Positions 1 to 57,695 of a stretch of 64,000 bases of DNA are shown piece by piece; within the stretch, counting starts at the first letter, position 1, and each line of letters begins with the position of its first letter. The notes beneath the pieces were generated by a model. The model did not search any database and was not told the origin of the DNA. It saw only the letters and a list, made by a program, of their open reading frames with translations. Source of the stretch: an uncultured Gemmatimonadaceae bacterium. Its GTDB lineage: Bacteria; Gemmatimonadota; Gemmatimonadetes; Gemmatimonadales; Gemmatimonadaceae. The position numbers and the translations under genes are program-made. Location: the NCBI GenBank assembly GCA_963790305.1, contig CAWBOC010000010.1:409939-473938 (forward strand), written 5' to 3'.

Positions 1-688
1 TACGCTGGTGCGCGGGGAGCCGGCGGCGATCACGGTCGTCAATCGCGCACGGGAGCCGGTCAGCGTGCATTGGCACGGGATCGAGCTCGACAGCTACTTC
101 AATGGTGTCGGTCACTGGAGCGGCATTGGCGAGCGTCTGGCACCGACGATCGCACCGGGCGATTCCTTCGTCGCGCGCATGACGCCGCCGCGGGCCGGTA
201 CCTTCATGTATCACACCCACGCCCATGAGGTCGAGCAGATGATCGGCGGCTTGTATGGCCCGCTCATCGTCCTCGAGCCGGGTCAGCCGCGAGACCCGAT
301 GACCGATCGCATTCTCATGCTCAGCACGAGTGGGTCCGCCGCGCAGTCGCCGAACGTGAACGGGGACACGACGGTCGTGCCGCTCGAGCTCCGCAAAGGC
401 ACGACGTACCGGCTGCGCTTTCTCGCATTAGCACCTAACGAGGGCAGGCTGGTGCGACTTCTGGCTGACACCGTGGTACAGCGATGGCGCCCGCTCGCCA
501 AAGACGGGGCGACCCTGCCCGCGAACCAGGCGGTCGCGCGCCCCGCGCGCTTGGCGATGGGCACGGGAGAGACGTGGGATGTCGAGCTGACGCCGTCCGA
601 GACACGGGAGCTGACGCTCGAAATCCTGACGGTGGGCCGTGGGTTGCCGCCGGTGCGAACGCGGATTCCGGTGCGCGTGCGGGACTAG
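1..688 (+). CDS. Multicopper oxidase, C-terminal part (5' end outside window); paralog of 7009..8910
   Basis: VHWHGIELDSYF and FMYHTHAHE copper motifs; clearly similar to the second half of the protein at 7009..8910. Confidence 0.85.
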   Translation, partial: TLVRGEPAAITVVNRAREPVSVHWHGIELDSYFNGVGHWSGIGERLAPTIAPGDSFVARMTPPRAGTFMYHTHAHEVEQMIGGLYGPLIVLEPGQPRDPMTDRILMLSTSGSAAQSPNVNGDTTVVPLELRKGTTYRLRFLALAPNEGRLVRLLADTVVQRWRPLAKDGATLPANQAVARPARLAMGTGETWDVELTPSETRELTLEILTVGRGLPPVRTRIPVRVRD

Positions 689-1053
689 TCCGGCCCTAAC
701 GCCGCCGCCAGCTTTTTCGGCGCCGCCAGGCGGTATGCCTCGCGGAGGATGTCGCCCAGCTCCGCCCAGTCGCACTTCCCGTCGAGGTAGACGCCCACCC
801 ATCCGCTCGGGCCCACGTACGGCGGCTTGAAGAACCGGTTGGGTGCCTCGCGGATGAGAAACTCCTGATTGACGTGCACCGACTTGCACCACACCGACGA
901 GCGTCCACCGCCGTGGTGGGTCGACGCGTCCGCGTACATCGCGAAGATCTTGTTGCGCACGCGGAACGTTGGCTCGCCCCACGCCTCGACTTCGTGCGCC
1001 TCGGGAAGGGCGAGGCACATCTTGCGAAGGCGGGTCAGCGGCCGGGGCGGCAT
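685..1053 (-). CDS. MmcQ/YjbR family protein
   Basis: CLALPEAHEVEAWGEPTFRVRNKIFAMY ... FFKPPYVGPSGWVGV; ATG at 1053. Confidence 0.85.
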   Translation of the reverse strand: MPPRPLTRLRKMCLALPEAHEVEAWGEPTFRVRNKIFAMYADASTHHGGGRSSVWCKSVHVNQEFLIREAPNRFFKPPYVGPSGWVGVYLDGKCDWAELGDILREAYRLAAPKKLAAALGPD

Positions 1054-1262
1054 CCTACCGGGCGCGCTTCGACGCCCCGCGCTTTCGCGCTGCTCCCCTC
1101 GCATTGGCGCGCCGCCAGCAGATCTCACATCGCGCGCCACGATACTTGTGTCCGCGCGAGCAGGTCTTCCATCCTGATTTGCGAGCCTTCGGCATCCGTC
1201 ACTCCTCTAGGGTGATGATGTGGCGGCGAGCGCAACCAGACAGGCCCAGCGCGCGCGCGGCG

Positions 1263-1664
1263 TCACAGGCGCCGTTGTCCCTGGGCATCGCAGGCGAAGG
1301 CGCGGCCGTTGGCATCGTAGCACGTGCCGTACGGACTCCGTCCATCGCCGGTAAAGGCCGCGAGACCAATACCGACAATGGCGAGAACCACCAGCCCGGC
1401 CGCGGCCGCGGCAACAACGCCCAGCGTGAGTCGGTTACGCAGCGACCGCGGGTGGCGGTCGAGAAGTCCCCAGCTCGCGTAGCTCGCGGCGGCGCCGAGC
1501 ATCGCCGCGACCGGCCACCAGCCAGGCGCGAAAACCAGCGTCGCCGCGGCGGCGACCGAGGAGGCCATCGCCTGCTCGACCAACGATCGGCGCGATCGCT
1601 GGCGCGCACGTGCGGCGAACATCTGGAATACCGTTTCCCCGCCGTCAGTACGGTCGACGACCAT
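1263..1664 (-). CDS. Hypothetical membrane protein
   Basis: About three hydrophobic segments, C-terminal CYDANGRAFAC; GGAG upstream of ATG. Confidence 0.55.
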   Translation of the reverse strand: MVVDRTDGGETVFQMFAARARQRSRRSLVEQAMASSVAAAATLVFAPGWWPVAAMLGAAASYASWGLLDRHPRSLRNRLTLGVVAAAAAGLVVLAIVGIGLAAFTGDGRSPYGTCYDANGRAFACDAQGQRRL

Positions 1665-2771: not shown

Positions 2772-3449
2772 CTAGCCAGACACCTCGGCGATAAAAAGAG
2801 CGGAGGCGGGCTTCTGCGTGTTCGGATGGAGCGGCTCGCGCACCTCGAGAAGCCGGAATCCACTCTCGCTGAAGAGCTTTATCCAGGTCTCGAGGGTGCG
2901 GAAGTACCAGGGTGCGGGATCGGTGAACTCGGTGCCGAACCCCGCCCACGAGCCGGTGCGCCACCCATCCATGTAAGGCTGATCGCCGCTGGCGATCAGC
3001 GGGTGCAGCGTCTGCACGATGAGCGCGCCACCCTCGTTGAGCAGGGCGGGCGCGTGATGGATCAGGTCGTTGACGGAATCCTTACCGAGCAGCGCGAAGT
3101 TCGCCACGGCGACGTCGACTCTGATCCGGAGCTCGCCTTCCGCGAGCGCCTCGTACGAGGCGACATGAAACTCCCCGCCGCCGGCGCGGGCGGCCTGCTC
3201 GACGAGGGCAGGCACCACGTCGACGCCGATGGCGCGGATGCCCTGTGTCGCGAGAGCGCGTACCAGCCACCCCTCTCCGCACCCAATGTCGAGCACGACG
3301 TTAGGCGACCGGCCGAGGACGGCGTCAATGATCGCCTGATTGGTGACGAGCGTGCGGCTCTCGATCTGGCTCTCGCGCACGGCATTCGTCCACGGCGCGG
3401 CGTTCTTGCGCCAGGAGTCGACGATCTTGGCGTCTGATAGCGGATCCAT
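2772..3449 (-). CDS. Class I SAM-dependent methyltransferase
   Basis: VLDIGCGEGWL motif I; start overlaps the upstream stop codon. Confidence 0.9.
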   Translation of the reverse strand: MDPLSDAKIVDSWRKNAAPWTNAVRESQIESRTLVTNQAIIDAVLGRSPNVVLDIGCGEGWLVRALATQGIRAIGVDVVPALVEQAARAGGGEFHVASYEALAEGELRIRVDVAVANFALLGKDSVNDLIHHAPALLNEGGALIVQTLHPLIASGDQPYMDGWRTGSWAGFGTEFTDPAPWYFRTLETWIKLFSESGFRLLEVREPLHPNTQKPASALFIAEVSG

Positions 3450-4015
3450 CACGGGGGAGAGTCCGGTGTCGGATTGCAATCGCCATTCAGTGTCTTCCGC
3501 ATACGAATCACGCGCAGCCCGAGCCCGTCAGGCATCCCGATCACGAGCTCCTCGACGGAGGCGAAGGCGAGGGCGCGATACAGCGGCTCGCCGGGCAAGG
3601 TGGATACGAGCTCCAACTCTCGGAAGCCGGCAGCCAGAGCGGCGTCGGCGCAGGCCTGGTACAGCTGACGGGCGAGGCCTCGCCGAGTCCACAGGGGGTG
3701 AACGAAGAACGCCCTGATCCTTGCCGGTTCTCGCTCGGGATCGAGTACTGGGTCGGCAGCCCCTTTCATCTGGTCGCCACCATACAGCGTGGCGCGGCGG
3801 CTCCATCCCCCCGCGGCGACGATTGCTCCTTCTGCCTCGATGACGAAATACGTGCCGTCCGCGATCAGCTGCGAGTCGGGGCCAAAGACCCAGCGCAACG
3901 AGCTCGCGATCTGTTCTTCGGAATAGTATCCGGCACTCAGTACGCGAACCGAGGCATCAATGAGCGCCCGGATTGCCGGGACGTCGTCGACCGTTGCGAC
4001 ACGGAGGTCGGGCAT
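3449..4015 (-). CDS. GNAT family N-acetyltransferase
   Basis: ARIRAFFVHPLWTRRGLAR; TLPGEPLYRALAF. Confidence 0.9.
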   Translation of the reverse strand: MPDLRVATVDDVPAIRALIDASVRVLSAGYYSEEQIASSLRWVFGPDSQLIADGTYFVIEAEGAIVAAGGWSRRATLYGGDQMKGAADPVLDPEREPARIRAFFVHPLWTRRGLARQLYQACADAALAAGFRELELVSTLPGEPLYRALAFASVEELVIGMPDGLGLRVIRMRKTLNGDCNPTPDSPP

Positions 4016-4154: not shown

Positions 4155-6974
4155 ATGCGGGGCATTCTGAAGCTGGTGGCGCTGGCGATGGCGATGACCA
4201 CGCTCGTACCCGTCACGGCGCTCGCGCAGGGTGGCGCCATCCGCGGGCGCGTCGCAGACACGACCGGAGCTCCAGTTGCGGACGCAGTCGTGTGGGTGGA
4301 GGCGACGGCGCTGCGCGCGATGACCGGTGCCACTGGTGAATACGTCATCAGCGCGGTTCCCGCAGGCCCGGCGATCGTGCGCGTCCGCCGCATCGGTTAC
4401 GTCGACATCGCACCGGCGCCACGCGTCATCGTCGTCGCGGGCGGAACCGTCCAGCAGGATTTCACCCTTCGCAACGTCGCCAACACCCTCGCGCCAATCG
4501 TAGTCGGGTCACGCGCCACGCATACCGCCGCCGATGAGCTGGCGGTTCCCGTCGACGTGTTCACGCCGGAGATGATCCGCTCGCAGGGCACGACCGAGAC
4601 CGCTCAGATTCTCGCCCAGCTTGCACCGTCGGTGAATTTTCCGAGGCAGAGCGTGTCCGACGCGTCGGAGATCGTCAGGCCGTTCACCATGCGCGGCTTG
4701 AGTCCCGATCACACGCTGGTGCTGCTCAATGGAAAGCGCCGGCATCACACCGCGCTCATTCATTATTACGGGGCAGGGCAGGGGGCCGGCTCGAGCGGCG
4801 TGGACATGAACGCGTTCCCGGCGAGCGCCATCGAGCGGCTCGAGGTGCTGCGCGACGGCGCCGCGGCGCAATATGGCTCCGACGCGATCGCCGGCGTCGT
4901 CAACGTCGTCCTCAAGGAAGGCGCATTCGCTCCCTTCTTCAGCGTCGACCTCGGCGAATACATGACCAGTGAGGAGAACCCGGCCGCGCTGCCCGTCAAT
5001 GGCGAGCGTCCGAGCTTCCCGCGCGATGGTCGGACGCTCGACATCAACGGTGGCTGGGGCGTCCCCCTCGGAGGCGGCTCACTCAGCCTGTTCGCTGAAT
5101 ACCGCGATCGCGACCCGACGAACCGGGCCGGACCGGACTCCGAGCCGCAGTTCGGGGGCGATGCGGACGACGTGGTCAACGGCGACCTCGTCGCGAAGAA
5201 CAATCCGATTCCGATGCCGAATCATCACTGGGGGGACGGGGCGTCGAAGGATCTCATGACGTTCGCGACGCTTCGCCTGCCGCTCGGTGCCGCCGGCGCC
5301 GCGGGCCTCTATGCGTTCGGCGGGTACAGCAAGCGCGAAGGTACCGGCTTCGGCTACTTCCGCCCGCCGTCGAGCGAGCGCAACTGGACGGAGATCTACG
5401 AGAACGGTTTCCTTCCCCGGTTCGCGCCGGACGTCGTCGATCTGTCGGCCGTGGTGGGGGCGAGAGGTATCGGGGCAGGCTGGGGATACGATTTCAGCAT
5501 TACCTACGGGCGCAACGCATTCGAGTACAACCTCGACAACACGCTCAACACGTCGTTAGGTCCGTGTCTCGATGCGCCCTGCGCGCCCGGCCAGGATGGC
5601 GTGCTTGGAACGACGGACGATCCGGGCATCCCCAATCAAACGAGCTTTTTCGCCGGTGAGCTGGGGCTCTCGGAAGGGATCTTCAGCGTGGACCTGAACC
5701 GGGAGTTCGAGCTTGGGCTCGCCTCGCCGATTCACATTGCGATCGGCGCTGCTTACCGGCGGGAGAACTATGAGATCACGGCCGGCGAGCGGGCATCGTA
5801 CATCAATGGCTTCCATCCAGCGTCGGACAATAGTATTGCACCGTCGGGCTCGCAGGTCTTCCCCGGATTTCGTCCGGAGGACGCCGCGGACGCCGACCGC
5901 AGCAACATTGGCGCGTACGTCGATCTGGAAGGAGACCTGGTGCCGAGACTGCTCGCGAACGTCGCGGCGCGATTCGAGAACTACAGCGACTTCGGCTCGA
6001 AGGTCACCGGCAAGCTCGCCATGCGCTTTCAGCCGTCTACGAAGGTCACCTTTCGGTCCGCGGTCAGCACCGGCTTCCGCGCCCCGTCGCTCAACCAGAG
6101 CTTCTACTCGAGCGTCGTTACCAACTTCAAGGCCGACGAGATCACCGGCGCGCCGATTCCATTCGAGATCGGCATCTTCCCGGTGAATTCTCGCGAGTCG
6201 CGCGCCCTCGGCGCACGGGATCTGGAAGCCGAGTCGTCCCGGAACTTCAGCGCTGGCGTCGCACTCTCGCCGACGGAGCATCTGACCGTCACCGCCGACT
6301 TCTTTCTGGTCAACGTCGACGACCGGATCGTTCTCACCGGCTTCCTCGACACCGATAGCGTCGCGGCGATTCTTCGCGGAACGGGCTCGCGCGCCGAGGC
6401 GGCGCAGTATTTCACCAACGCGATCGATACGCGCACGCGCGGGATCGATTTCACCGCGGACTATCGGGTGCCGACGACGGGGGGCGAGTTCGGGTTGAAC
6501 GCCGCGTTCAACTACACGAAGACGACGATCCCGAACGAATGCTGCATTCCGTTGCCGGCCGAGCTTCAGGGAACCGATGAAGAGCTGATCGGACGGTTCG
6601 ATGAAGGCGGTCTGTTGGCGATGACGCAGGAGCGGCCGAAGTGGCGCAGCATCGTGACCGGCCAGTATCGCCGCGGGTCATGGAACGGGCTCGCGCGGTA
6701 TTCCTACTACGGGAAGTACACGTCGTCGCTGTACAGCTACAGCGGCAATGACGTCACCACCTACTCGGCGAAGGGGCTGTTTGACGTCGAGCTCGGGTAC
6801 ACGGCCGCGCGGATCTTCAAGATCGCGGTGGGCGCGCGCAATCTCCTCGATACGTATCCGGATCGGATGTCGTACAACAACGGCTTCGACATTTTCCCAT
6901 ACCCGCCCGCATCTCCGTTCGGGTATAACGGGCGGTTCGTGTATACTCGAGTCGACCTCGACTTCGGGCGGTGA
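4155..6974 (+). CDS. TonB-dependent receptor with N-terminal carboxypeptidase-regulatory-like domain
   Basis: Signal peptide; plug motif MRGLSPDHTLVLLNGKRRH..IERLEVLRDGAAAQYGSDAIAGVVNVVLK; C-terminal beta-strand; GGAGG RBS. Confidence 0.93.
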   Translation: MRGILKLVALAMAMTTLVPVTALAQGGAIRGRVADTTGAPVADAVVWVEATALRAMTGATGEYVISAVPAGPAIVRVRRIGYVDIAPAPRVIVVAGGTVQQDFTLRNVANTLAPIVVGSRATHTAADELAVPVDVFTPEMIRSQGTTETAQILAQLAPSVNFPRQSVSDASEIVRPFTMRGLSPDHTLVLLNGKRRHHTALIHYYGAGQGAGSSGVDMNAFPASAIERLEVLRDGAAAQYGSDAIAGVVNVVLKEGAFAPFFSVDLGEYMTSEENPAALPVNGERPSFPRDGRTLDINGGWGVPLGGGSLSLFAEYRDRDPTNRAGPDSEPQFGGDADDVVNGDLVAKNNPIPMPNHHWGDGASKDLMTFATLRLPLGAAGAAGLYAFGGYSKREGTGFGYFRPPSSERNWTEIYENGFLPRFAPDVVDLSAVVGARGIGAGWGYDFSITYGRNAFEYNLDNTLNTSLGPCLDAPCAPGQDGVLGTTDDPGIPNQTSFFAGELGLSEGIFSVDLNREFELGLASPIHIAIGAAYRRENYEITAGERASYINGFHPASDNSIAPSGSQVFPGFRPEDAADADRSNIGAYVDLEGDLVPRLLANVAARFENYSDFGSKVTGKLAMRFQPSTKVTFRSAVSTGFRAPSLNQSFYSSVVTNFKADEITGAPIPFEIGIFPVNSRESRALGARDLEAESSRNFSAGVALSPTEHLTVTADFFLVNVDDRIVLTGFLDTDSVAAILRGTGSRAEAAQYFTNAIDTRTRGIDFTADYRVPTTGGEFGLNAAFNYTKTTIPNECCIPLPAELQGTDEELIGRFDEGGLLAMTQERPKWRSIVTGQYRRGSWNGLARYSYYGKYTSSLYSYSGNDVTTYSAKGLFDVELGYTAARIFKIAVGARNLLDTYPDRMSYNNGFDIFPYPPASPFGYNGRFVYTRVDLDFGR

Positions 6975-7008: not shown

Positions 7009-8910
7009 ATGCCGCGTCTCGCATCACTCGCGGTGCTCACGCTGGCGTTCCTGACGTCGGCTGCCGACGTTAGGCGACCGCCTGCGCCCGAGCGCATTCA
7101 GACGCATGACAACGAGCGCTCGGCGGGGACGCTCACGAACGGCGTGCTCCGCCTGCGCCTCGAGACGCGGATGGGCAGTTGGTATCCGCATGGAGACGAC
7201 GGCCCCAACACGCAAATGGTCGCGTTCGCCGAGGTGGGCCGACGGCTGCAGATCCCCGGTCCGCTGATTCGGGTGCCCGCCGGGACGGAGGTCATCGCCT
7301 CGATCACGAATTCGCTGTCGGACAGCGCGCTTACCGTGCACGGCCTCCTCTCGCGGCCGGTTGCGGCGAGCGTAGCCCCCGAGCCGGTGACGATCCCACC
7401 CGGTGCGACGCGCGAGGTGACGTTCCGCCTCGACGCGCCCGGGACGTACTACTACTGGGGCACCACAATGGGGCGGCCGTTCCGCTTGCGCACAAAGGAA
7501 GACGGCCAACTCTCGGGCGCGATCATCGTCGATCGGCCTGGCGCGACCGGGCGCCACGAGCGTGTCCTGGTGTTTGGCGAGTGGTCCGACACGGTCGGGA
7601 CCGAGAGTGGCCCCGCGCAGCAATGGCTGCTCCTCGTCGTCAACGGTCGCTCGTGGCCGCACACGTCGCGGTTTACGCAACGCGTCGGCGATACCGTGCG
7701 CTGGCACCTGATCAACGCGTCGGCCGACGTTCATCCCATGCATCTTCATGGGTTCTACTTTCACGTTGACGGTCGCGGCGACGGCCTGCGCGATACGACC
7801 TACGCGGAATCGGCTCGTGACATGGTGGTCACCGAGCGCCTGACCCCGGGCAGAACCGCGTCGATCACGTGGGTGCCGGAGCGCCCGGGAAACTGGCTGT
7901 TTCACTGCCACTTCACGGCTCACTTCGCGGCACGCGCCCCGTTAGGCATGCCCTTGCCCGCGTCGCCGAAGGGCGCACACGCGCAACACGCTGGCAACCA
8001 CGCTCTCGAGGGGATGAGCGGACTGGTGTTGGGCGTCGAGGTAGCGCCGCGCCGAGCGGCGAAACAGAACGGGGAGACCCGACGCGACGCGGGGCGCCGT
8101 CGTCTGCGACTGCTGGCGCGGCCCGCGGGCGGGACGGAGGATCGGCCGTTTTACGCGTTCACCCTTCACGAGCGCGGAATCGAGTCGGCGATCGATACCA
8201 TGGTGCGCAGCGGCCCTCCGATCGTGCTTCGGCGAGACGAGCCCGTCTCCATCATGGTGGTCAATCGCACGCCTGAGCCGACGGCGGTGCACTGGCACGG
8301 CATCGAGCTCGACAGCTACTTCGACGGTGTGGCCGGGTTCAGCGGAGACAATCGCCGCCTGTCGCCACCGATTGCGCCCGCCGATTCGTTCGAGGCGCGT
8401 TTCACTCCACCGCGTGAGGGCACGTTCATCTATCACACGCATGTGGACGAGCCACGCCAGCAACCGGCCGGTCTGTCGGGAGCGCTCCTGGTCGTCGATC
8501 CTGACAAACCCTACGACGCCACGACGGACATTCCCGTCCTGATCTCTACGCCGCGTCAGCCGGATGTCGCGCGACGGGCGGTCCTGCTCAACGGCACGCT
8601 TTCGCCGCAACCGGTGGCGCTCCGGGCTGGCGTGGCGCATCGGATCCGACTCATCAACATCACCATCGGCCGCCCCGGCATCCGTGTCGAGGTATCGCGG
8701 GACTCCTCACTCGTGCGCTGGCGCTCGCTGGCGAAGGATGGCGCAGACCTGCCTGACGAGCGCCAGGTGATGCAAGTCGCGCGTCAGCCCATCACCATCG
8801 GTGAGACATTCGACTTCGTGTTGACGCCACCCGACACTGGGCCGATGCGCCTCGAAGTGCGCAGTGGCGGTGGCGTACTTCTCGCGACGATGCCGTTCGT
8901 CGTCAAGTGA
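7009..8910 (+). CDS. Secreted multicopper oxidase, four cupredoxin domains
   Basis: HPMHLHG, WLFHCHFTAH, VHWHG, FIYHTH motifs; GGAGG RBS before ATG 7009. Confidence 0.9.
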   Translation: MPRLASLAVLTLAFLTSAADVRRPPAPERIQTHDNERSAGTLTNGVLRLRLETRMGSWYPHGDDGPNTQMVAFAEVGRRLQIPGPLIRVPAGTEVIASITNSLSDSALTVHGLLSRPVAASVAPEPVTIPPGATREVTFRLDAPGTYYYWGTTMGRPFRLRTKEDGQLSGAIIVDRPGATGRHERVLVFGEWSDTVGTESGPAQQWLLLVVNGRSWPHTSRFTQRVGDTVRWHLINASADVHPMHLHGFYFHVDGRGDGLRDTTYAESARDMVVTERLTPGRTASITWVPERPGNWLFHCHFTAHFAARAPLGMPLPASPKGAHAQHAGNHALEGMSGLVLGVEVAPRRAAKQNGETRRDAGRRRLRLLARPAGGTEDRPFYAFTLHERGIESAIDTMVRSGPPIVLRRDEPVSIMVVNRTPEPTAVHWHGIELDSYFDGVAGFSGDNRRLSPPIAPADSFEARFTPPREGTFIYHTHVDEPRQQPAGLSGALLVVDPDKPYDATTDIPVLISTPRQPDVARRAVLLNGTLSPQPVALRAGVAHRIRLINITIGRPGIRVEVSRDSSLVRWRSLAKDGADLPDERQVMQVARQPITIGETFDFVLTPPDTGPMRLEVRSGGGVLLATMPFVVK

Positions 8911-12431: not shown

Positions 12432-12498
12432 TTACCAGCATAGCGCTCTTGACAGGTAAGAGATAATGTATCACCATCAATATGGCTTTGGCTGGTAA
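12432..12498. promoter_or_regulatory. Two T(T/C)ACC-N18-GGTAA inverted repeats overlapping a TTGACA -35 hexamer
   Basis: TTACC 12432-36/GGTAA 12455-59; TCACC 12471-75/GGTAA 12494-98; TTGACA 12449-54; divergent intergenic region. Confidence 0.6.
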
Positions 12499-47308: not shown

Positions 47309-49525
47309 CGGGCCGAGGCTGACGCTGAGACGAGGCCAGTGATCGAGCCGCCGCCCGCTCGCGGTGAGCTCGACTGGCCCAATCGGGGTCGCCATCCCTA
47401 ACGAGGCTCCCCAGCCCGCGATGTAGTCCGATGAGCGGATTCTCCACCGCTCGAGCGCGTTGCCGACGTTGACGCCGACGGTGCCGTACACCTCGTTCAC
47501 GATCTCCTTCTGCACCGAAGCGCGAACGATCTGGACGGCGCGACCGCTCCGCTCGTTCGGCTTGAGCCCCCAGAAGATGGGCTGCGTCTCCGGAAAAGCC
47601 GGCGACGGGATAGTGCCACCCAGGAAGAACACCCGATGCACTGGCAAATCGCTCCCGCGAGCCACTCCGGCAATGGCACGCAGGCGAAGCACTGACGACC
47701 ACGGGAGCGGCAGAATCTGCTCGACATCGCCAATGTGCTGCGTGAAGCTATTCCGCCCGCCGAGTCGGTTGTTGCCGACCTCGCTGCGAAGACGCAGTGA
47801 GATGCCGCGGGTCGGGAAGAAGCTGCGATCGAACGTATCGCGCCAAAGCTGGGCGGCGGCCGTGTAGTATGTCCGCTTCTGCGACGTATCCGAGTCGGCG
47901 ATGCGGAAATCCGCGTCAATGTACTCCAGACCGCCACGCACCCCGATCACGGACGTGCGACCGAGCGTTCGCGCGGCCCCGCCACCGAGAGTCGCGACGC
48001 GCGTATTGATGTCGGCGACGCGCTCCCCGGCCTCGAAGATGTCGAGCAGCGTGCGCGTGTACCGCGCCTCCGCGCCGAGGCTGAAGTTGGAGACTACGCC
48101 CCGTCCGGCGAGATAACTGATGCCGAACTGCGTCGGCTCGCCGAGCCGCACGTCGGCGTCGAGCGTTGAGCCGTACTGGAGCCAGTTGAAGAGCGTGCCG
48201 GTGAAGAGCAATGCCGCCTTGCGATGGTCGTCGAAGCGAAATCCCAACCCGATCTGGTCCTGCGGCTGCGCCTCGACTTCTATGACCGCCACGGTGTCGG
48301 TTGGGGTGGCGTCGATGCGGTAGGTTGCGCGCGAGAAGAGGTGCGTCGCGCTGAGTCGCGACAGGGCGCGATCGAGCGACGTCGCGGACAGGCGAGCGGG
48401 AACACTGAGCGAGACTGCCCGCGTCACGACGTTGCGCGCCTGTTGTGCCGTCACGCCGCTCACCATGACGTCGGTAATCATGACGGAATCGCGGAGCAGA
48501 GGTGCCACGACACGGCTCCCCGACGAGGTGTCCGCGACCACGGCGAGTCGGCGCAGCGTGTCCGCATGCACGGCCGCCGCGGCCTCACCGCGCTTGATCC
48601 ACTCATCGACCTCCTCGAACGAGAACGTCGAGAGGCCCTTCACGTCCGGCTGAATCAGCACATCACACAACCGCCGCTGCTCCTCGTTATGCTCGGCCAT
48701 CTGAAAGGCGACCGTCTGGATGACGATGTCCACGATGCTGCGCAGATCATCGCCCTTGAGGAGCGGGCCTGAGACGTCGCTGCAGATCAGGATGTCGGCG
48801 CCGAGTGTGCGCGCATCCTGCGCCGGAAGATTGCGGGCGACGGCGCCATCCATCAGCAGCCGGCCGTTGAGGCGAATCGGCTGAATGACGCCGGTGATGG
48901 CCATGCTCGCTCGCATCGCCTGGGCGAGCACGCCACTCGTTAGTACCACTGCCTCCCCCGTCTCGACGTCGGTCGCGACGGCGGCGAACGGCAGTGGCAG
49001 CTGCGTGAAGTCACGCACCGTCTGAGCACGCCAGGTGGCGCGCTCGAGCAGGCGCATGATGGCATCTCCGCGCACGACACCGCTCGGAAGCGTGACGCGC
49101 CCCCCGCGCACGGGGAAAGAAATCACGGTGCGCGACCCGACCACTCTGCGATCGGGGACGAGCATCTGCCGATCGCTCCGGTCGCCTAACAGCGCCGACC
49201 AGTCCTGGCTGGCGGCGATGTTGCGAATCTGCTCCGGCGTGTATCCAATGGAGTAGAAGCCGCCGAGCACTGCCCCCATGCTGGTGCCGCTGACGACGGA
49301 GATGGGGATGCCGGCGCGCTCGAGCGCGGCCAGCACGCCGATGTGCGCAAACCCTTTGGCGCTGCCGCCGCTCAGGACGAGCCCGATACGCGGGCGCGCG
49401 GCCGCTACGGATGTGGTATCCTGCGCAGCTGCCGTGGCGGCGATCAGGAGGCAGCCGAGTGTCAGAGCGCGCGCACCGCGGCCGGGCGGTTGGGTGCGAC
49501 TCGGAGGGGTGCTACGAAGAGACAA
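47300..49525 (-). CDS. Patatin-like phospholipase fused to POTRA/Omp85 barrel (PlpD-like)
   Basis: LSGGSAKGFAHIGV, GTSMG, DGA motifs; C-terminal TPIGPVEL..SLGPLF barrel end. Confidence 0.85.
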   Translation of the reverse strand: MSLRSTPPSRTQPPGRGARALTLGCLLIAATAAAQDTTSVAAARPRIGLVLSGGSAKGFAHIGVLAALERAGIPISVVSGTSMGAVLGGFYSIGYTPEQIRNIAASQDWSALLGDRSDRQMLVPDRRVVGSRTVISFPVRGGRVTLPSGVVRGDAIMRLLERATWRAQTVRDFTQLPLPFAAVATDVETGEAVVLTSGVLAQAMRASMAITGVIQPIRLNGRLLMDGAVARNLPAQDARTLGADILICSDVSGPLLKGDDLRSIVDIVIQTVAFQMAEHNEEQRRLCDVLIQPDVKGLSTFSFEEVDEWIKRGEAAAAVHADTLRRLAVVADTSSGSRVVAPLLRDSVMITDVMVSGVTAQQARNVVTRAVSLSVPARLSATSLDRALSRLSATHLFSRATYRIDATPTDTVAVIEVEAQPQDQIGLGFRFDDHRKAALLFTGTLFNWLQYGSTLDADVRLGEPTQFGISYLAGRGVVSNFSLGAEARYTRTLLDIFEAGERVADINTRVATLGGGAARTLGRTSVIGVRGGLEYIDADFRIADSDTSQKRTYYTAAAQLWRDTFDRSFFPTRGISLRLRSEVGNNRLGGRNSFTQHIGDVEQILPLPWSSVLRLRAIAGVARGSDLPVHRVFFLGGTIPSPAFPETQPIFWGLKPNERSGRAVQIVRASVQKEIVNEVYGTVGVNVGNALERWRIRSSDYIAGWGASLGMATPIGPVELTASGRRLDHWPRLSVSLGPLF

Positions 49526-51154: not shown

Positions 51155-51793
51155 CTAGCGGTTGCCGCCGAACATCTTGCCGAGGACGTTAGGCGCCATG
51201 CGCGCCAGGTCATCGGCAATGCCAGGGCGATCTTCGCTCGCGCCGAAGATCTGGCCGAGGATGCCCCCGAGCCCCGGTGCGCGGCGCTCGACTTCCTGCT
51301 TCTCCGCCTGCAGCTCGGCGCCGATCTCGTTCGCGCCGGCGCCAGTCTGACGCTTCCGGCGGCCGAGGTAGGCCATGACGAGTGGTGCGAGCATCATCAG
51401 CAGTCGGCCGATCTGCTGTGAGTTGAGGCCGGTCGCGCGCCCGATGCCTTGCTGAACGGGTTCGCGCTTGCGACCGAGCACGTGCTCCAGGATGCCGGCG
51501 CCGTTGAGCGCACGGGGAACCGCGATGTCGGCGGCGCCCGACGTCGCGGCGCCAAACAGCGGCGAGACGTTATCAAGGAGACTGCCGTCGTGATCTTCCT
51601 CGAGCGCCTGGTTCAGCGACTGTGCGCCCGCCGGCGTCTCCACCTCGCGAGCCAGGCCACCGATGAGCATGGGCAGCGCCATCGAGATGGCCTGGGCAGT
51701 GCTCGTCTCATCGGCGCCGAGCTGCTGGCTCAGCTGCGAAAGGGTGTTGCCCTGTTGGAGCTGGGCAGTGAGGTCGTCGATGAGAGAGGCCAT
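51155..51793 (-). CDS. DUF937 family protein
   Basis: [44 protein letters not shown]. Confidence 0.8.
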
Positions 51794-52242
51794 GGCGTGA
51801 ATCTCCACTGGAGGGAAGGGTTCATCCTCTCCCCGGCCGACGCGAGAGTCAAGGACTGACGGTGACTTCCCTTTCTGCCTCGCGCCCGCTCGCTCGCGAG
51901 CACTCCAGTTGGAGCCCGCCCACGAGTGCTCCGGCCAGGACTTCGTCGAGCTTTTGGCGGTCGTGCGCCTAACGCTAGCAGCTGGGCGAGGAGCCGCGTC
52001 GTCAACAAAATGCTGACAAGCAGAAGGGACGCGAGTGTTCTCCCGGCCGCATTGTAGCCCTCAACCAGCAGGTTGTGCATGCCGGTTCGCCGCTGGGGAA
52101 CTGTTGGTCACCGCACATCCGTTGGCGCGGCTGGCCGGTCCTCGCAAACTTGGCCGCCATGGCGGCAAGGTTTCGCGGGGGGCAAGGGGAAGGCGGTATG
52201 GGCGAATTCCACCCATACCGTGCCCCCGCGATTTCGTCCGGG

Positions 52243-52998
52243 TTAGAGCGTCGCCGCGATGGGCCCCGACCCCACACGGAAGGGGCCTGTCAGCACCAGG
52301 TCGAGTCCTTGCCCGTCGGTGAGGTCCCACGCCTTGTACAGCGCGAAGCCTAACGCGAGCAGCCCGACGCCGGCGGCGTATAACCCGAACTCGAACATCG
52401 CCAGCATCGGCAGGATGAGAAAGGCGAATACGCTCTTCCCGACACTTGGCTCAGCCACTGGCTCCGGGACGTCATCCTTGATGCCAAGCGCCTCGAACTC
52501 CTCGTTGAGCTGCTTTTGCTGCGTGGCGAGTGTGCGAATATCGGAGGCTGCGATCGCGGCCCTGCGCTTCGCGTCGTCATTGGCGCGCTTGATCGCCGGA
52601 ACGAGGGAGCCGAGCAGGATCGCGACGTAGGTCAGCCCCACGGCGAGATACTGGTAGCGTCGGCCGCCGTAGCCGTCGACACTGGCCATGATCCGCTTGC
52701 CCATGAACCAGCCGATGCCGACGACGATCGGGAGTCGCAGGAAGGGGAAGATGATCACGCCCGCCGCGAGCGCGGCGGCGCCGAGCAGGGTGGTGAGCGC
52801 CCCCTGAATGACGGCGCGCTGCATGGCCGCCGCGCCGACACCGCGCTGAATCATCTTCGCGAACTGGGGACGGCACTTGGCGCAGATGGGTCGCTCGTTG
52901 AGGGCGAAGTACTGGGTGCGCATTGGCGCTCGGCATTCGGAGCACCACATCGCCGGGGTCGGCGGTGGTGAAGGATCATGAGTCGGCATCGCGGACAT
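52243..52998 (-). CDS. Hypothetical membrane protein with N-terminal CxxC...CxxC
   Basis: CSEC..ICAKC then several TM segments, GGRRYQYLAVGLTY. Confidence 0.75.
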   Translation of the reverse strand: MSAMPTHDPSPPPTPAMWCSECRAPMRTQYFALNERPICAKCRPQFAKMIQRGVGAAAMQRAVIQGALTTLLGAAALAAGVIIFPFLRLPIVVGIGWFMGKRIMASVDGYGGRRYQYLAVGLTYVAILLGSLVPAIKRANDDAKRRAAIAASDIRTLATQQKQLNEEFEALGIKDDVPEPVAEPSVGKSVFAFLILPMLAMFEFGLYAAGVGLLALGFALYKAWDLTDGQGLDLVLTGPFRVGSGPIAATL

Positions 52999-53243
52999 TG
53001 CAGGTCCCCGGAGAGATTCGCACGGATGAGCTGGCCGTCAGAAGGACGCACCTCCGCGTGCACGGGCAACGGGTTGCGTGTCGAGCATGCCGCGCGCAAC
53101 GGCCCCGGACTGGGATGGGCTTTTCCTGCCTGACCGTCAGCCTCCCCTCATGGGCGGCACGGGGTCGTCGGCCATGCGCCGCGCTGGCGGCATTCCCCTG
53201 GCCGGCGTATGTTCGCGCTGAATCCCTCGATTGGACCTGCGCC

Positions 53244-56200
53244 ATGCACGGTCCGCCCAGCGCGTCATCCGTCCTCTTCGCTGGTCGCTACGCCGTCGAA
53301 CGCGAGGTTGGACGCGGCGCAACGGCCACGGTGCTCCTGGCTCGCGACACGGAGCGCGATCAGAGCGTCGCAATAAAGGTTCTGCGAGCGGACCTGGCGG
53401 AAGTCGCGGTTAGGCAGCGCTTCCTCCGCGAGAGCCGGCTCACCGCCGAGCTCCATCACCGACGCATTCTCCCCGTCCTCGACGCCGGCGAATACATGGG
53501 GCAGTTGTACCTGGTCGCGCCCTTCATGGAGGGCGGCACACTGCGCGACCTGCTGGTGCGCGAAAAGCAGCTTCGAATCATCGATGCGGTCCGCATCGCC
53601 CGATCAGTGGCCGACGCGCTGGACCACGCCCACCGGTCAGGCTTCATCCATCGAGACATTAAGCCGGAGAATATTCTGTTTCACGACGGCGAGGCGTACC
53701 TCGCTGATTTTGGGATCGCGCGTGCATTGGAAAAGGCCTTGGGCGACACGTCGACGTCGGCCGGAATTGTTCGCGGCACCGTGGCATACATGAGCCCGGA
53801 ACAAGCGAGCGGTGACCACGACTACGACGGACGGAGCGACATCTTCTCGCTCGGCTGCGTGCTCTATGAGATGCTGGCTGGCGTGGGTGCGTACATCGCT
53901 GCGACCCCCGAGGCCGTGCTCGCGCAGAGATTCATGCACCCTCCTCGCGACATTCGGGTGTACCGATCGGCGGTGCCGCGCCAGCTCGAAGCGGTGGTCA
54001 GCCGTGCCGTTGCCTTCGAGCCTGCCGATCGATTCGCGTCGGCGGCCGCGTTTGCGGAGGCGTTGGCCGCCGTCCCTACCGATCCGACGGCAGCTGCGGC
54101 AAGCATTCGTTCCCGTTCAGTACTGGGGCATCACCGGTGGTGGGAGCGTGGTCGTGTACGTATAGCGGCGGGGGTCGCTGCCGTCGCAATCGCAGTCGGG
54201 CTCGCCAGCGCTGCCGGCGTGCGACGCAGATTCGGCGTCGCGTCGCCGGCGACGGACACGACGCACGTTGCCGTCCTCCAGATCGAGCGACCGTCGGAAA
54301 GTGCATCGCGCACGATGGATGATGATCTCCTTCACATGGCGATGGCTCGATGGAGCGGGATCGTCCTGGTCGACCGGTTCCAGGTGGCTGACGCGATTCG
54401 TCGTCACGGGCCAGTCGAGTCTGGAGACGAGGCAGCCGCGATCGCAACATCGTTAGGGGCGGGACGGTACGTGCGCGGTCGACTCACGCGTGAGGGCGCG
54501 GCGTGGCGGGCATACGCCGCACTCTATGACGTCGGAAGCACTCGCGCCCTGTATCAGGCGACTGAAGAGATTCCGCGCGACTTGACGTCCGCGTTGGCCG
54601 CGTACTCCCGGCTAGCCGATTCCCTGCTGCTGCGTGGCGCGCAACCGGATACGAGTCCAGCCGGCCTTGCTGGGAGACGCTCGCTCCCGGCGATCCAGGC
54701 CGTGGCGCGTGCCCAGCGGGCGCTCGACGAGTGGGACCTCGCGGGAGCGGACTCTGCCTTTCAGCGGGCGCTCATGTTCGACTCGACGTATTCGGGGAGA
54801 CCATTGCTGTGGCTGGCACAGGTTCGAGCCTGGCGCGGCCTCTCCCCGACGGGTTGGTCGGTTCTGGCGGAGCGGGCCGCGGCGAGGAGCGACGAGCTCT
54901 CAGAGAAGGAGCGACAGCTATCCCGAGCACTCGTGTTGCTGGGTGCACGCCGATTCGAGGAGGCGTGCCGAGTGTACGACGACCTTCGACAGCGTAACGG
55001 TCGCGACTTTTCGGCGTGGTTTGGGCTCGGCCAGTGCCGAACGATGGATAGGGCAGTGGTGCGCGATTCGTCCAGCCCGTCCGGTTGGCGGTTCCGAAGC
55101 AGCTATCGGCGCGCCGTCGAGGCCTACATAACAGCCTTCGAGATCCTGCCATCCGTGCATCGGGACTATGAGCGGGGTGCTTTCGAGCGGCTACGCATGC
55201 TCCTGGCGGTCTCGACCGCGCTGCTGCCGGGCTATGACATTGATCAGGACAGTGCGCTCTTCCTCGCGCGCCCGGCGTGGCTCGATGACACGCTCGCCCT
55301 GGTGCCATATCCCTGGCAGGCTGTCTTCGCTGGGAACGCGAACGTCGTACCGCCAGGGTTTACCGTTGCCCTCGAGGCGCAGCGGACCGCGTTCAGAAGA
55401 ATTGCCGCTGGCTGGTCGGCGGCCTTCCCGCGCAGCGCGGGCGCAAAACACGCGGTCGCGATTGCCCTCGAGCTCATGAACGATCCAACCGCCATCGATA
55501 CGGTGCGCGCGGCGCGTCAACTCGCGGACTCGGCGCAACGACTTCGACTGGGTGCAGCGGAAGTGCTCATGCTGGTGCGCTTCGGCGCGCCGGACAACGA
55601 GGAGTATCTGCGCGCGGCGGCCGCACTCTCTGATTCCCTGTTGGCTGGGGTGGTTTCGCCGACCGGGGTGAATTACGAGGACTTCGCGTCGGTGGCAGCG
55701 CTAGCCGGACGGTGTAGTACGTCCGAGACGCTCGCCCGCCGACCGGATCCGGCATCGGCTGCTGCCTTGCGCATCGCCCCGCGTTTGTACGCGGACGGGC
55801 TGACGTTGTCGGCGCGAGTCGCGCTTGGATGTCGGCCGACTGCAGGGAGCATAACGATTGGCGAGCTCGCCCGATCCATCGAGCGTGCGTACGGCCCCGA
55901 CGAGCGACGACGCATCAGCGAAGTGCTCCTCTTTCGCCCGGCCATGATGGCCGACGTACCCGACTCGAGCATCGTCGTTTCTCTCGCCGCGCACAGCCAG
56001 CACGGCCTGCTGCAGGCCGCAAGCGCTCGAGCTCGCCGTGACCCAGCGGGCGTTCGCTCGGCGCTTGCCGCGTTTGCGAGCGAATGGCGGCCCGAGCTGG
56101 GGCCGCCAACGCCAGACATCGCCTATCCCGGCGCCCGCCTGTGGATGGCCATCGGTGACACCGCGCAGGCCATCGACTGGCTGGAGCGCTCGCTCGGCGG

Positions 56201-56414
56201 ACTGCCGACGTCGGATCCGCGAATGCTCACGGATCAGGCGCGTGCGGCGGCACTGGTGCGCGCCATGGTTCTGCGTGCGGATTTCGCGAATGCCGCGCGA
56301 GACCCTAACGCCGCGCGTCGCTGGGGAACGGCAGTGACCCTGCTGTGGGGGCGGGCGGATTCCGACCTTCGGCCGATCGTCGACCGGATGGCGCGCTACG
56401 GTGCGCGCCGATGA
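53244..56414 (+). CDS. Transmembrane Ser/Thr protein kinase with C-terminal TPR-like region
   Basis: GRGATATV, VAIKVL, HRDIKPEN, DFGIA, GTVAYMSPEQ; TM segment IAAGVAAVAIAVGLA. Confidence 0.9.
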   Translation: MHGPPSASSVLFAGRYAVEREVGRGATATVLLARDTERDQSVAIKVLRADLAEVAVRQRFLRESRLTAELHHRRILPVLDAGEYMGQLYLVAPFMEGGTLRDLLVREKQLRIIDAVRIARSVADALDHAHRSGFIHRDIKPENILFHDGEAYLADFGIARALEKALGDTSTSAGIVRGTVAYMSPEQASGDHDYDGRSDIFSLGCVLYEMLAGVGAYIAATPEAVLAQRFMHPPRDIRVYRSAVPRQLEAVVSRAVAFEPADRFASAAAFAEALAAVPTDPTAAAASIRSRSVLGHHRWWERGRVRIAAGVAAVAIAVGLASAAGVRRRFGVASPATDTTHVAVLQIERPSESASRTMDDDLLHMAMARWSGIVLVDRFQVADAIRRHGPVESGDEAAAIATSLGAGRYVRGRLTREGAAWRAYAALYDVGSTRALYQATEEIPRDLTSALAAYSRLADSLLLRGAQPDTSPAGLAGRRSLPAIQAVARAQRALDEWDLAGADSAFQRALMFDSTYSGRPLLWLAQVRAWRGLSPTGWSVLAERAAARSDELSEKERQLSRALVLLGARRFEEACRVYDDLRQRNGRDFSAWFGLGQCRTMDRAVVRDSSSPSGWRFRSSYRRAVEAYITAFEILPSVHRDYERGAFERLRMLLAVSTALLPGYDIDQDSALFLARPAWLDDTLALVPYPWQAVFAGNANVVPPGFTVALEAQRTAFRRIAAGWSAAFPRSAGAKHAVAIALELMNDPTAIDTVRAARQLADSAQRLRLGAAEVLMLVRFGAPDNEEYLRAAAALSDSLLAGVVSPTGVNYEDFASVAALAGRCSTSETLARRPDPASAAALRIAPRLYADGLTLSARVALGCRPTAGSITIGELARSIERAYGPDERRRISEVLLFRPAMMADVPDSSIVVSLAAHSQHGLLQAASARARRDPAGVRSALAAFASEWRPELGPPTPDIAYPGARLWMAIGDTAQAIDWLERSLGGLPTSDPRMLTDQARAAALVRAMVLRADFANAARDPNAARRWGTAVTLLWGRADSDLRPIVDRMARYGARR

Positions 56415-56459
56415 CATGAAGCGGTAGAGAACGAGCCACCTTTCTCCTGGGAGGTTCTG

Positions 56460-57695
56460 ATGACCGCGAACGCGCAGGCACAATGTTACGCTTTACGCCG
56501 AGCTCGGCGGTACGCGATGCTTGGCGGAACAGGGCTCGTTCTTTTTGCCGCGTTCCCCATGGTTACGCAGAGCCAGGTGGCGGATAGCGCGGACATCCGT
56601 GCAGTACTCAACAGGTTTCGGAGCGATACTCTACGGCGGCAGCGCATTGAGGGAATCGTGGCGGCGGACTCTCTGCGTCGCGATTCTGTGTTCAAGCGGG
56701 TTGATAGAGTGATGGTGCAGCTTGGCCGGCTTCCGTGGATGATTCCAGAGGCCCACGACGAGCAACCCCTCACCGATGGCGCGGGGAACTACGGGCCAAT
56801 GTCGTATATCTTCGCCTCTCCGTACCTCGACGGGTTCACGAGGGAGGCCCAATTCATAGAACACGGGCCTCGGGGGGTGCTCGTGGCGGTGGTCTATGTA
56901 AATGCGCCGGTCAACGCGGTCTTACCGGCGACGTACGGCAGACTTCAGCTGAGGGGCGGTGTGAACTGCATATGGCTGTCGGCCGCTCCCGCCGCCAACC
57001 TGATCGCCTGGGCAGCATACGTATCCTCCGCCCAACCGAGCGACTCGACCTGCGTCGCACCGCCAGCGCCCGGTCCGTTTTTGGTCGTTAGGCGCACCGG
57101 CGCACCGGGGCACTTTGACGTTCCGCCGGTCGCGCGGTTCGATGAGGATGTGGCCGGACAGCCATTGCTGGGCGTGAAGTGCCTGGCGGGATGGTGCGAG
57201 ATCGGTCCGCAGGGGTTTCAACGCAAGGTCGCACTGGTCCCTGAAGTGCCTCCGGGCCACCGTGAAACTCGGATCAAGGGCTGGCACGATGAGCAACGCC
57301 TTGCGGTCGATGCGGGCGCGGGTCAAATGACGCCAGGCCCCCGAGCGGCGCTGCGCCCAGTTCGCAACCTTCACGCCCTTTCGGCAGCCTCGTTTCGGAT
57401 GACTTGGCGGCCCGTCGCCACCATCTTTTTTCTGACAACGCCACCTCCCGGATCGAACTACGCGAAGTGGGGACTCCAGGCAGGTCACAATCGACTCGAG
57501 CTCATCGAGTTCGAGGGGCGGTGGGTCGCGCGGATTCGCCGCCAGGACGGATCCATTCGGTACTGGCCTCACGTACAACGGCACGTTCACTACGACGCTC
57601 CCGTACCTGGCGCCGCGAGATTTCGCTGGACAGCACTCGATGATGGTGGCTGGGTGCCTTGCGGTCAGGCGTGCTGTCTCGTCGACGGGATGTAG
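56460..57695 (+). CDS. Hypothetical secreted Cys-containing protein
   Basis: GGAGG RBS, signal-like N-terminus, GVNCIW, KCLAGWCEIG, WVPCGQACC. Confidence 0.7.
   Translation: MTANAQAQCYALRRARRYAMLGGTGLVLFAAFPMVTQSQVADSADIRAVLNRFRSDTLRRQRIEGIVAADSLRRDSVFKRVDRVMVQLGRLPWMIPEAHDEQPLTDGAGNYGPMSYIFASPYLDGFTREAQFIEHGPRGVLVAVVYVNAPVNAVLPATYGRLQLRGGVNCIWLSAAPAANLIAWAAYVSSAQPSDSTCVAPPAPGPFLVVRRTGAPGHFDVPPVARFDEDVAGQPLLGVKCLAGWCEIGPQGFQRKVALVPEVPPGHRETRIKGWHDEQRLAVDAGAGQMTPGPRAALRPVRNLHALSAASFRMTWRPVATIFFLTTPPPGSNYAKWGLQAGHNRLELIEFEGRWVARIRRQDGSIRYWPHVQRHVHYDAPVPGAARFRWTALDDGGWVPCGQACCLVDGM

Follow-up and report, generated by a model that had tools for sequence, protein, structure and literature searches.

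A dispersed octamer matching the integron core site points to a genome-wide DNA signal in Gemmatimonadaceae

To our knowledge, only three systems are known in which bacterial genomes are populated by a short DNA word in great excess: the DNA uptake sequences (DUS) of Neisseriaceae, the uptake signal sequences (USS) of Pasteurellaceae, and the highly iterated palindrome HIP1 of cyanobacteria. Each of them has shaped thinking on bacterial sex, DNA self-recognition, and genome architecture. In the case of DUS and USS, competent cells prefer DNA that bears the word, and a specific receptor (the minor pilin ComP, with ComN predicted) co-varies with it. About half of the DUS and USS copies are described as lying in terminators, often as inverted pairs (bioRxiv 10.1101/2025.10.24.684340). 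HIP1 is credited with a 15- to 300-fold excess and with conservation inside open reading frames (ORFs) as well as between them (PMC5861425), and it has recently been proposed to aid transformation (PMC5861425; PMC13756078). Short asymmetric boxes of another kind define attC, the recombination site of integron cassettes, in which RYYYAAC and GTTRRRY are given as the inverse core and core sites (PMC3053210). Here, we describe the non-palindromic word CCTAACG/CGTTAGG, which recurs along the window, a stretch of 64,000 nucleotides that forms the final 64 kb of contig C10 (CAWBOC010000010.1) of an uncultured Gemmatimonadaceae bacterium (genome G000; GCA_963790305.1; 4.31 Mb in 13 contigs, 66% G+C, 94% complete). 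The repeated word points to an undescribed genome-wide DNA signal and looks like a fourth such system, this time in a little-studied soil phylum.

The window contains 31 exact heptamers, 14 reading CCTAACG and 17 CGTTAGG on the forward strand, at precisely the positions where a preliminary description had counted them by eye. Dinucleotide-preserving shuffles give a mean of 3.62 copies (standard deviation 1.68, maximum 8), and 0 of 100 reach 31. The hexamer CCTAAC occurs 33 times, and the copies at 49185 and 53409 are indeed the only two that lack the seventh base. Our crude gene calls (3267 genes covering 80% of G000) place 22 of the 31 copies in genes, in four combinations of frame and strand, which agrees with the earlier view that most copies are coding and use several frames; nine fall where no gene is called. 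The window is denser than the genome average (18.2 copies expected at genome density, P = 0.004). Its last copy starts at 57086, so that the end of the window is free of the word as described, and this 6.9-kb tail is not unusual by itself (P ~0.13 at the genome mean spacing). The G+C fraction is 0.62-0.68 up to 56 kb and 0.72-0.76 in the final 8 kb.

Across the whole genome there are 1229 heptamers (628 forward, 601 reverse), corresponding to observed/expected ratios of 6.6, 11.6, and 8.9 for Markov orders 1, 2, and 3; orders 4 and 5 absorb CCTAACG itself. Each position of the heptamer is specific, and the preceding base is G in 70% of the CCTAACG copies, indicating that the unit is the octamer GCCTAACG. 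Beyond this position -1, the flanks carry no information, and there is no conservation outside the octamer. The octamer is present in 855 copies (436 forward, 419 reverse) against 39.9 expected, or 33.8 once the word is masked from the background, and the word has a density of one per 3.5 kb (0.2-0.3 per kb). The excess here amounts to 21-48 fold. Enrichment of one-letter variants is limited to three positions, with A (11x) or C (7x) in first place, C to A in third, and A (11x) in last, and variants of the inner letters (C, T, A, A, C) stand at 0.3-1.3 of expectation, words containing the CTG codon excepted. GCCTAACG is a DNA-level signal, and it ranks first among both the 7-mers and the 8-mers of G000.

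The excess, which had initially been judged against base composition, holds against both the Markov and the codon-preserving nulls. Synonymous shuffles within genes retain 79 sense and 32 antisense copies, and whole-codon shuffles 55 and 27, as opposed to the 373 and 495 observed (4.7- and 15.6-fold over the synonymous shuffles). Copies occupy all frames that do not create a stop codon, on both strands, and also uncalled DNA, with the majority in genes. The sense heptamers of G000 read as CCT-AAC-G (191) or nnC-CTA-ACG (181), and the antisense ones as nCG-TTA-GGn (413) or nnC-GTT-AGG (80); a further 287 lie outside called genes, and 77 are in the two frames giving a stop, which are most likely errors of the crude gene calls. 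The imprint on coding sequence is considerable: 415 of the 1079 TTA codons of G000 sit in CG-TTA-GG, and the word writes 23% of the P-N-[VADEG] and 13.8% of the [SPTA]-L-G tripeptides. In comparison with the word-poor relative G010, amino acid identity at word codons (56/90; 62%) equals the background of 62.5%, which indicates that the word has been written into ordinary positions by synonymous or conservative changes, such as CCC-AAC to CCT-AAC or GCG-CTG-GGC to GCG-TTA-GGC. The copies were thus made mostly by changes of this type, which force the use of rare codons.

The balanced use of the two strands in the window extends to the entire genome, without replichore polarity. Bins of positive GC skew in G000 hold 250 forward and 255 reverse copies, and bins of negative skew 375 and 343; at the skew switch on contig C5, the strand of the word does not change, forward equaling reverse on both sides. 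Close pairs are depleted, with 91 gaps below 500 bp against 164 expected and five below 100 bp against 35. Word density climbs with the G+C content of genes from 0.11 to 0.39 per kb. We also considered whether copy-free stretches mark mobile DNA: an 18.7-kb gap on C10 carries housekeeping genes, so that gaps are not simply foreign DNA; the codon score shows no trend, and repeats are few in G000.

The preliminary description had named an enrichment confined to this assembly as a possible refutation and positional conservation in orthologs as a check. The word is found in all nine genomes of the genus (382-1006 octamers each) and in many other genera, and its sites are conserved. In the 34-54 kb portion of the window, the exact heptamer is kept at 26 of 32 aligned orthologous congener sites, at ~80% nucleotide identity. 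With ~130 kb aligned to each of the congeners G004 and G005 and heptamers of the same composition as controls, 26 of 35 and 42 of 57 sites are kept, respectively, against 37% and 33% of the controls (P = 9e-6 and 4e-10); taken together, the figures are 74% for word sites and 35% for control words. In the same two genomes, the TAA/TTA core is kept at 74-75% inside the word versus 35-40% outside it, and the one-off variants are kept no better than controls. Between the genera g1 and g5, at 67% identity, four of 38 sites are common, plus two that carry the g5 variant.

Octamers number 605 in genus g5, compared with 3-65 in three further genera of the family and in two other families. To place these counts in context, we used a family sample of 151 genomes from 68 genera (three of the genomes, G023, G045, and G091, are flagged as unpublished; all three are word-poor, and none of the conclusions depends on them), with word-rich defined as 200 or more octamer copies. 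By this threshold, 50 of the 151 genomes and 25 of the 68 genera are word-rich, reaching a maximum of 6360 copies in G024, and most others have fewer than 60. In many relatives too, this is the most over-used word of all. In sampled DNA of G111 and G024, the heptamer reaches 0.76 and 1.7 per kb, respectively, and its flank preferences are unchanged. A dialect, GCCAAACG, is raised in G012 (genus g5) only, with 925 copies against 110 of a control.

Letter by letter, the octamer reproduces GCCTAAC/GTTAGGC, the core site of integrons as it occurs in attC arrays from the same order. In another family, word-poor genomes have few octamers, which are clustered on one strand ~550-630 bp apart, and in G015, G013, and G017 such clusters are integron cassette arrays. 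Their layout is GCCTAAC-G followed by an inner inverted repeat, a loop, the partner repeat, and then GTTAGGC 84-99 nt downstream; on contig C95 of G015, for instance, 26 of 27 copies are on one strand, and 10 of the first 14 have GTTAGGC or GTTAGAC at that distance. In these arrays, the octamer thus corresponds to the R'' box plus the next base. In a survey of 80 loci around relatives of an integron integrase (IntI) from many phyla, including 12 loci from Gemmatimonadota, GCCTAAC is the perfect R box encountered most often, with 36 of the 84 detections in total and 24 of the 29 from the 12 Gemmatimonadota loci. Most of these loci have a lone GTTAGGC 100-300 bp past intI. The one-off variant ACCTAACG, enriched 11x in G000, is also an attested R box. 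The odds of the top word matching the order's own integron box by chance are about 1 in 8000; we therefore take the link between the word and integrons as real. The initial idea of a DNA-level signal of the HIP1 or uptake-sequence kind is supported by these results, to which the integron identity and the patchy family-wide spread are added.

Contig C9 of G000 itself carries the gene for a full-length integron integrase (TIGR02249; 449 bits, the cut-off being 265). Among the 120 relatives listed, about 70 share 77-98% identity, so that near relatives probably keep the integrase too. No canonical attC or array is found in G000, where there are 0 pairs of GCCTAAC and GTTAGGC within 35-150 nt genome-wide; the 8 kb 3' of intI have 59-62% G+C and are poorly coding, with no canonical boxes. 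About 115 nt past the intI stop (within G000:C9:694912-704000) lies a near-core site, GCGTTAGCG. Among the integrase loci, only L209 and perhaps L179 look word-rich. L179, by its title a metagenome-assembled genome of Deltaproteobacteria, has nine GCCTAAC/GTTAGGC boxes in the 10 kb 5' of intI on a contig of 70% G+C, and its IntI is 60% identical to that of G000; these boxes could be an upstream array or belong to a word-rich genome outside the family.

As to mechanism, we tentatively favor an uptake-sequence-like drive over sites read by an integrase, which are possible but somewhat doubtful, and over a HIP1-like signal, which is unlikely. By analogy, the buildup of copies may resemble that of DNA uptake sequences in Neisseriaceae and Pasteurellaceae: a putative DNA receptor of the type IV pilus/competence machinery would prefer fragments that carry the word, and homologous recombination of the fragments taken up would spread and restore it wherever coding allows. 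One copy per fragment would suffice, which would explain the shortage of close pairs, and the gain or loss of such a receptor by a lineage would leave the word gained or lacking. A drive of this sort would account for the statistics, among them the lack of polarity, the scarcity of short gaps, the conservation of sites, the rise of density with gene G+C, and the single dialect, with no benefit needed per site. Nor would the match to the integron core be an accident, as the putative receptor would pick cassette DNA from soil DNA; a rationale is offered by the account of natural transformation feeding cassette recruitment in Vibrio cholerae (PMC12614218). An uptake drive also fits the competence genes of G000, which include PilB/T/C/M/O/Q, three minor-pilin clusters, a ComEA-like protein, an adjacent ComFB-ComEC pair, and DprA. 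Of these, ComFB is seen in 43 of 50 word-rich and 35 of 101 word-poor genomes (odds ratio 11.6) and, by genus, in 22 of 25 and 15 of 43, both comparisons being made irrespective of kinship. All three genera in which ComEC was not found (g21, g44, and g63) are word-poor.

Several observations weigh against this explanation. ComEA-like proteins, which were considered and set aside as a discriminator, occur in 148 of the 151 genomes, and ComEC in 141 (49/50 word-rich and 92/101 word-poor; P = 0.17); being nearly universal, this machinery does not predict the word. The ComFB association may simply be a clade marker, and two word-rich genera with assemblies of only 4-10 contigs, g40 and g71, lack ComFB. 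The FimT/GspH-like minor pilin of G000 does not follow the word and was rejected as the receptor, and no receptor was found, the examination covering this one pilin. Terminator-style inverted pairs are absent, in that the copies avoid each other (five gaps below 100 bp, as given above). Furthermore, nearly all Neisseriaceae and Pasteurellaceae carry some dialect, whereas de novo k-mer surveys of five word-poor genomes (400 kb of G010 and 80 kb each of G061, G052, G068, and G108) revealed no comparable dispersed word. The state of the word even switches within one genus, with 3896 and 4141 copies in G059 and G149 versus 66 in G112: the former two, 83% identical in aligned synteny, have ~0.86 copies per kb and 25 of 35 sites in common, whereas in G112, which shares 73% identity with each of them, 52 kb contain 0 copies and the word stands at 0 of 14 and 0 of 16 aligned sites. 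An integrase without a canonical cassette array is odd for a supposed cassette collector, and a reader of the integrase type would account more directly for the identity with the core site. The full-text literature, supplements aside, yielded no report of competence in the phylum.

In the search for dialects in word-poor relatives, GCCAAACG proved high in G012 alone, and the de novo surveys gave no comparable dispersed word. An excess of CTAACG in G108 was rejected as a dialect, since it comes from a different thing, a clustered element of tandem heptads (C[CT]AACGT)n, which form inverted pairs ~75-85 bp apart in at least seven places in 80 kb (within G108:C1:117000-179000). This element shares CTAACG with the octamer and is clustered rather than dispersed.

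The principal alternative to an uptake drive treats the dispersed copies as lone R boxes, each a binding or recombination site, that serve as genome-wide docking sites for the resident IntI or a protein derived from it. Selection might maintain them, for instance because cassettes could land there reversibly or because they titrate the enzyme, or they might be created by abortive strand exchange with attC DNA followed by mismatch correction. We regard this as possible, though with rather more doubt than confidence. It draws on the equivalence of the octamer to the R'' box plus the next base in the G015, G013, and G017 arrays, on the dominance of GCCTAAC among the R boxes of the surveyed loci, on the lone GTTAGGC past intI, on the presence of the full-length integrase in G000 and probably in its near relatives, and on the status of the 11x enriched ACCTAACG as an R box. 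The depletion of close pairs would also be expected if paired sites invite deletions. However, IntI is not a sufficient cause: on the side facing away from the array, core boxes are lacking in 50 of 59 IntI loci and in 10 of 12 loci from Gemmatimonadota, and G015, G013, and G017 have arrays and are yet word-poor. The copies lack an L box or any other conservation in their flanks, and GTCTAAC, which ranks second among R boxes overall, shows no enrichment as a dispersed word (0.6x). Cassette insertion by IntI is described as occurring at a mere GWT, so that a full R box is not needed (bioRxiv 10.1101/2022.09.11.507474), and the lack of a canonical attC anywhere in G000 means that there is no trace of cassettes having landed at the copies. 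Thousands of recombinase sites in genes should moreover be harmful, and this alternative offers no reason for them. It is chiefly the generally word-poor state of integron-bearing genomes and the sufficiency of GWT for IntI that weaken it relative to an uptake drive.

A signal like HIP1, in which the word is tied to DNA methylation, methyl-directed repair, or nucleoid organization and the integron match is coincidental, is unlikely. Its attraction lies in the statistics, since a 21-48 fold excess, conserved sites, and patchy presence within a taxon are all of the HIP1 class. One-letter deviations are enriched at the first and last positions, an enrichment reportedly also seen in one HIP1 paper. 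G000 further has two N6 methyltransferases without the usual kind of restriction partner. However, GCCTAACG is not a palindrome, that is, not its own reverse complement, and the chance match to the integron box that this requires has the low odds given above. The methylation branch of the original proposal fares poorly: no C5 methyltransferase was found in any of 21 genomes, and Vsr occurs in just one of these, which is word-poor, so that a Vsr/Dcm-type drive is rejected; neither of the two N6 methyltransferases of G000 follows the word; and G000 has no N6_N4 methyltransferase. The first of the two, a type IIG-like enzyme (P0001) with an SNF2 neighbor, is found in 19 of 21 genomes of the order, word-rich and word-poor alike, and was not found in the word-rich G004 and G007; identity along its length, the C-terminal third included, does not separate word-rich from word-poor genomes. 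The second, an orphan D12 methyltransferase (P0003), is found in 67 of the 151 genomes; G052 and G112 have it, and G012, G024, and G050 lack it. As a separate observation, the type IIG-like protein of G000 (G000:C7:233022-238368, equivalent to L048:8023-13371) is a 1021-aa Eco57I/MmeI-like methyltransferase adjoining a 739-aa SNF2 helicase, and its homologs show 38-87% identity that tracks kinship, a vertical inheritance unusual for a restriction-like pair.

Less probable still is a neutral sequence-specific bias of mutation or repair that makes the word without any function. The orthologous positions of word-poor genomes are indeed mostly one- or two-step neighbors (CCCAACG, CCGAACG, CCCAGCG), one-off variants at the inner positions are at or below expectation, and the trait switches within one genus. 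Against it, eight specified positions go far beyond the specificity of known repair biases, and Vsr-type systems give small excesses; neither Vsr nor a C5 methyltransferase is found in word-rich genomes; the AT-rich core is kept against the G+C pressure of the genome at twice the control rate; and close pairs are avoided. A neutral bias also leaves the match to the integron core site unexplained.

Readings as a polar signal or as an artefact are close to excluded. A recombination or segregation signal of the kind of Chi or of KOPS (FtsK-orienting polar sequences) is very improbable, even though Chi in Escherichia coli has a density like the one per 3.5 kb of the word and even though contig C1 of G012 (1-191000, of positive GC skew) has 23 of its 27 CCTAACG copies on one strand (P = 3e-4). 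Set against this are the absence of polarity in G000, where the skew switch on C5 is without effect, the mixed strands of G111:C1 (71 forward, 81 reverse) and G024, and the outcome for the 94% complete G000, in which neither RecC nor the AddAB nuclease domain PDDEXK_1 was found; we therefore reject both Chi and KOPS. On the same G012 contig, GCCAAACG is unbiased, and the other contigs of G012 are mixed; one-strand runs in the family-wide listing are artefacts of that listing, as the mixed G111:C1 illustrates. Least credible of all is the idea that codon usage, some common peptide, a family of repeats, or the assembly produces the word as an artefact, since, for all that the commonest settings are the P-N-x and x-L-G tripeptides, the codon-preserving nulls are exceeded 4.7- and 15.6-fold, all stop-free frames and uncalled DNA are used, the flanks are not conserved, and the same word is enriched in dozens of independent assemblies.

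The individual copies in the window illustrate the variety of settings. Sense copies reading CCT-AAC-G are at 434-440 (+; multicopper-oxidase gene fragment), 3299-3305 (-; methyltransferase-domain gene, 2772-3479, -), 13181-13187 (+; arginase-family gene, 12482-13468, +), 18305-18311 (+; TonB-receptor fragment, 17651-19189, +), 21318-21324 (+; SusD-family gene, 20688-22778, +), 32890-32896 (-; FG-GAP gene, 31445-33208, -), 35560-35566 (-; TPR/FG-GAP gene, 34223-37882, -), 40093-40099 (-; peptidase S9 gene, 39368-41788, -), 51187-51193 (-; DUF937 gene, 51155-51808, -), and 56304-56310 (+; Ser/Thr kinase gene, 52923-56414, +). The site at 35560 is kept in four of four aligned congeners, as well as in G012, and differs in the outgroup G015; that at 40093 is kept in six of seven aligned congeners, the outgroup G010 having CGTTGGG; and that at 51187 is kept in five of six. 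The other sense frame, nnC-CTA-ACG, is used at 10462-10468 (-; gene 9733-10479, -), at 22754-22760 (+) in the same SusD-family gene, at 23838-23844 (-; FG-GAP/ASPIC gene, 22812-26198, -), and at 31168-31174 (-; gene 30532-31440, -).

Antisense copies reading nCG-TTA-GGn are found at 695-701 (+; YjbR-family gene, 685-1140, -), 5554-5560 (-; TonB-dependent receptor gene, 4155-6974, +), 17308-17314 (-; YdjC-like fragment, 17244-17654, +), 24922-24928 (+; the FG-GAP/ASPIC gene), 47397-47403 (+; patatin/Omp85 gene, 47300-49525, -; kept in five of seven aligned congeners), and 54451-54457 (-; the Ser/Thr kinase gene). The nnC-GTT-AGG frame accounts for the antisense copies at 33179-33185 (+), in the FG-GAP gene at 31445-33208, and at 57086-57092 (-), the last copy, in an ORF at 56460-57695 (+). 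The copy at 16680-16686 (+) is between called genes, and no gene is called at 7068-7074 (-), 7940-7946 (-), 9658-9664 (+), 14617-14623 (-), 39190-39196 (-; kept in four of five aligned congeners), 39301-39307 (-; zero of one), 51968-51974 (+), or 52349-52355 (+; one of one).

Other features of the window and the assembly deserve mention in their own right. A near-perfect palindrome of ~110 bp at 42733-42847, without the octamer, has many matches on both strands of G000, G004, and G008 at 82-96% identity, which makes it a hairpin family resembling repetitive extragenic palindromic (REP) elements or miniature inverted-repeat transposable elements (MITEs). The final 6 kb of the contig, 58115-64000, have 72-76% G+C against 66% for the genome and no copy of the word; they show no syntenic match in five congeners, synteny with G005 reaching 58114, and represent either DNA that was acquired recently or a mis-join of the contig end. 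Between 16032 and 19189, genes are in pieces, with a TonB-receptor Plug domain fragment and a YdjC gene split in two, and elsewhere the PilB gene at G000:C11:869-1966 has an internal TGA; these broken genes suggest frameshifts or consensus errors of the assembly. Long near-identical stretches are also shared between contigs of G000, often at their ends (C3:183114-188806 and C11:40880-46571; C7:1-8554 and C12:1-8549; C6:2914-11808 and C9:5586-14480), and these, which include a PilQ gene, represent either duplicated assembly ends or real large repeats.

In the full-text literature, supplements aside, we found no report of the word or of uptake sequences in the phylum, and among the matches listed for the heptamer there were only primer and sequence strings. 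Either of the two leading explanations would be new, as one implies an uptake signal outside Proteobacteria and the other a chromosome peppered with integrase sites, and it was unexpected that the word is identical to the site at which integrons, the principal system of gene capture in bacteria, recombine. A bolder version of the uptake drive, which we consider rather improbable, is that some Gemmatimonadaceae have an uptake specificity tuned to the universal integron core site, by which competent cells would fish cassettes of any phylum from soil DNA and pass the single strands that enter on to the integron integrase they encode; the thousands of chromosomal copies would then be a by-product of the same bias acting on the DNA of kin. 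Such a specificity, if true, would provide the first example of an uptake sequence beyond Proteobacteria and would directly couple uptake specificity to integrons for the first time. The on/off contrast between close relatives means that the responsible gene should be findable by comparison. On the practical side, binning and the detection of foreign DNA in these genomes gain a sharp marker in the word, which may also be the key to transforming these hard-to-handle bacteria.

Among known systems, Chi and KOPS or the architecture-imparting sequences (AIMS) resemble the word in being 7-8-mers over-represented along the chromosome. However, Chi is co-oriented with replication and read by RecBCD or AddAB, neither of which is seen in G000, and KOPS/AIMS have a strong skew that switches at the origin and terminus, whereas the word is equal on both strands. 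REP and MITE families are conserved beyond a core and intergenic, in contrast to a word without flank information that lies mostly in genes. The likeness to HIP1 (GCGATCGC) is closer: both are octamers with tens to hundreds fold excess, conserved inside ORFs and between them, and patchy in their distribution, in the case of HIP1 within cyanobacteria. The difference is that HIP1 is palindromic and has cognate methyltransferases, whereas the word is asymmetric and no methyltransferase follows it.

With DUS and USS, the word shares the properties of a short, non-palindromic, lineage-specific sequence that is hugely over-represented on both strands, with copies placed in genes in the cheapest frames and stable at orthologous sites, with a dialect in one lineage, and with host genomes that have a full pilus and competence gene set. 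It differs from them in being present in about a third of the family and switching within a genus, in lacking copies in terminators or inverted pairs, and in its density, which is 0.2-0.3 per kb in G000, though 0.8-1.7 per kb in G111 and G024; it differs, too, in coinciding with the recombination site of a mobile system. When compared with that site, the copies in G000 are isolated and without the features that define attC, namely paired boxes 40-140 nt apart, L boxes, a hairpin, and one-way arrays by intI. The secondary attG sites are stated to need only GWT (bioRxiv 10.1101/2022.09.11.507474), unlike the full octamer here, and integron-bearing genomes in general have no such scatter, unlike G000. 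Nevertheless, among the RYYYAAC/GTTRRRY boxes of attC, the word matches as GCCTAAC/GTTAGGC, the commonest box in the arrays of the order, and it is identical to the R box that serves attC and attI sites, both in this order and across many soil phyla.

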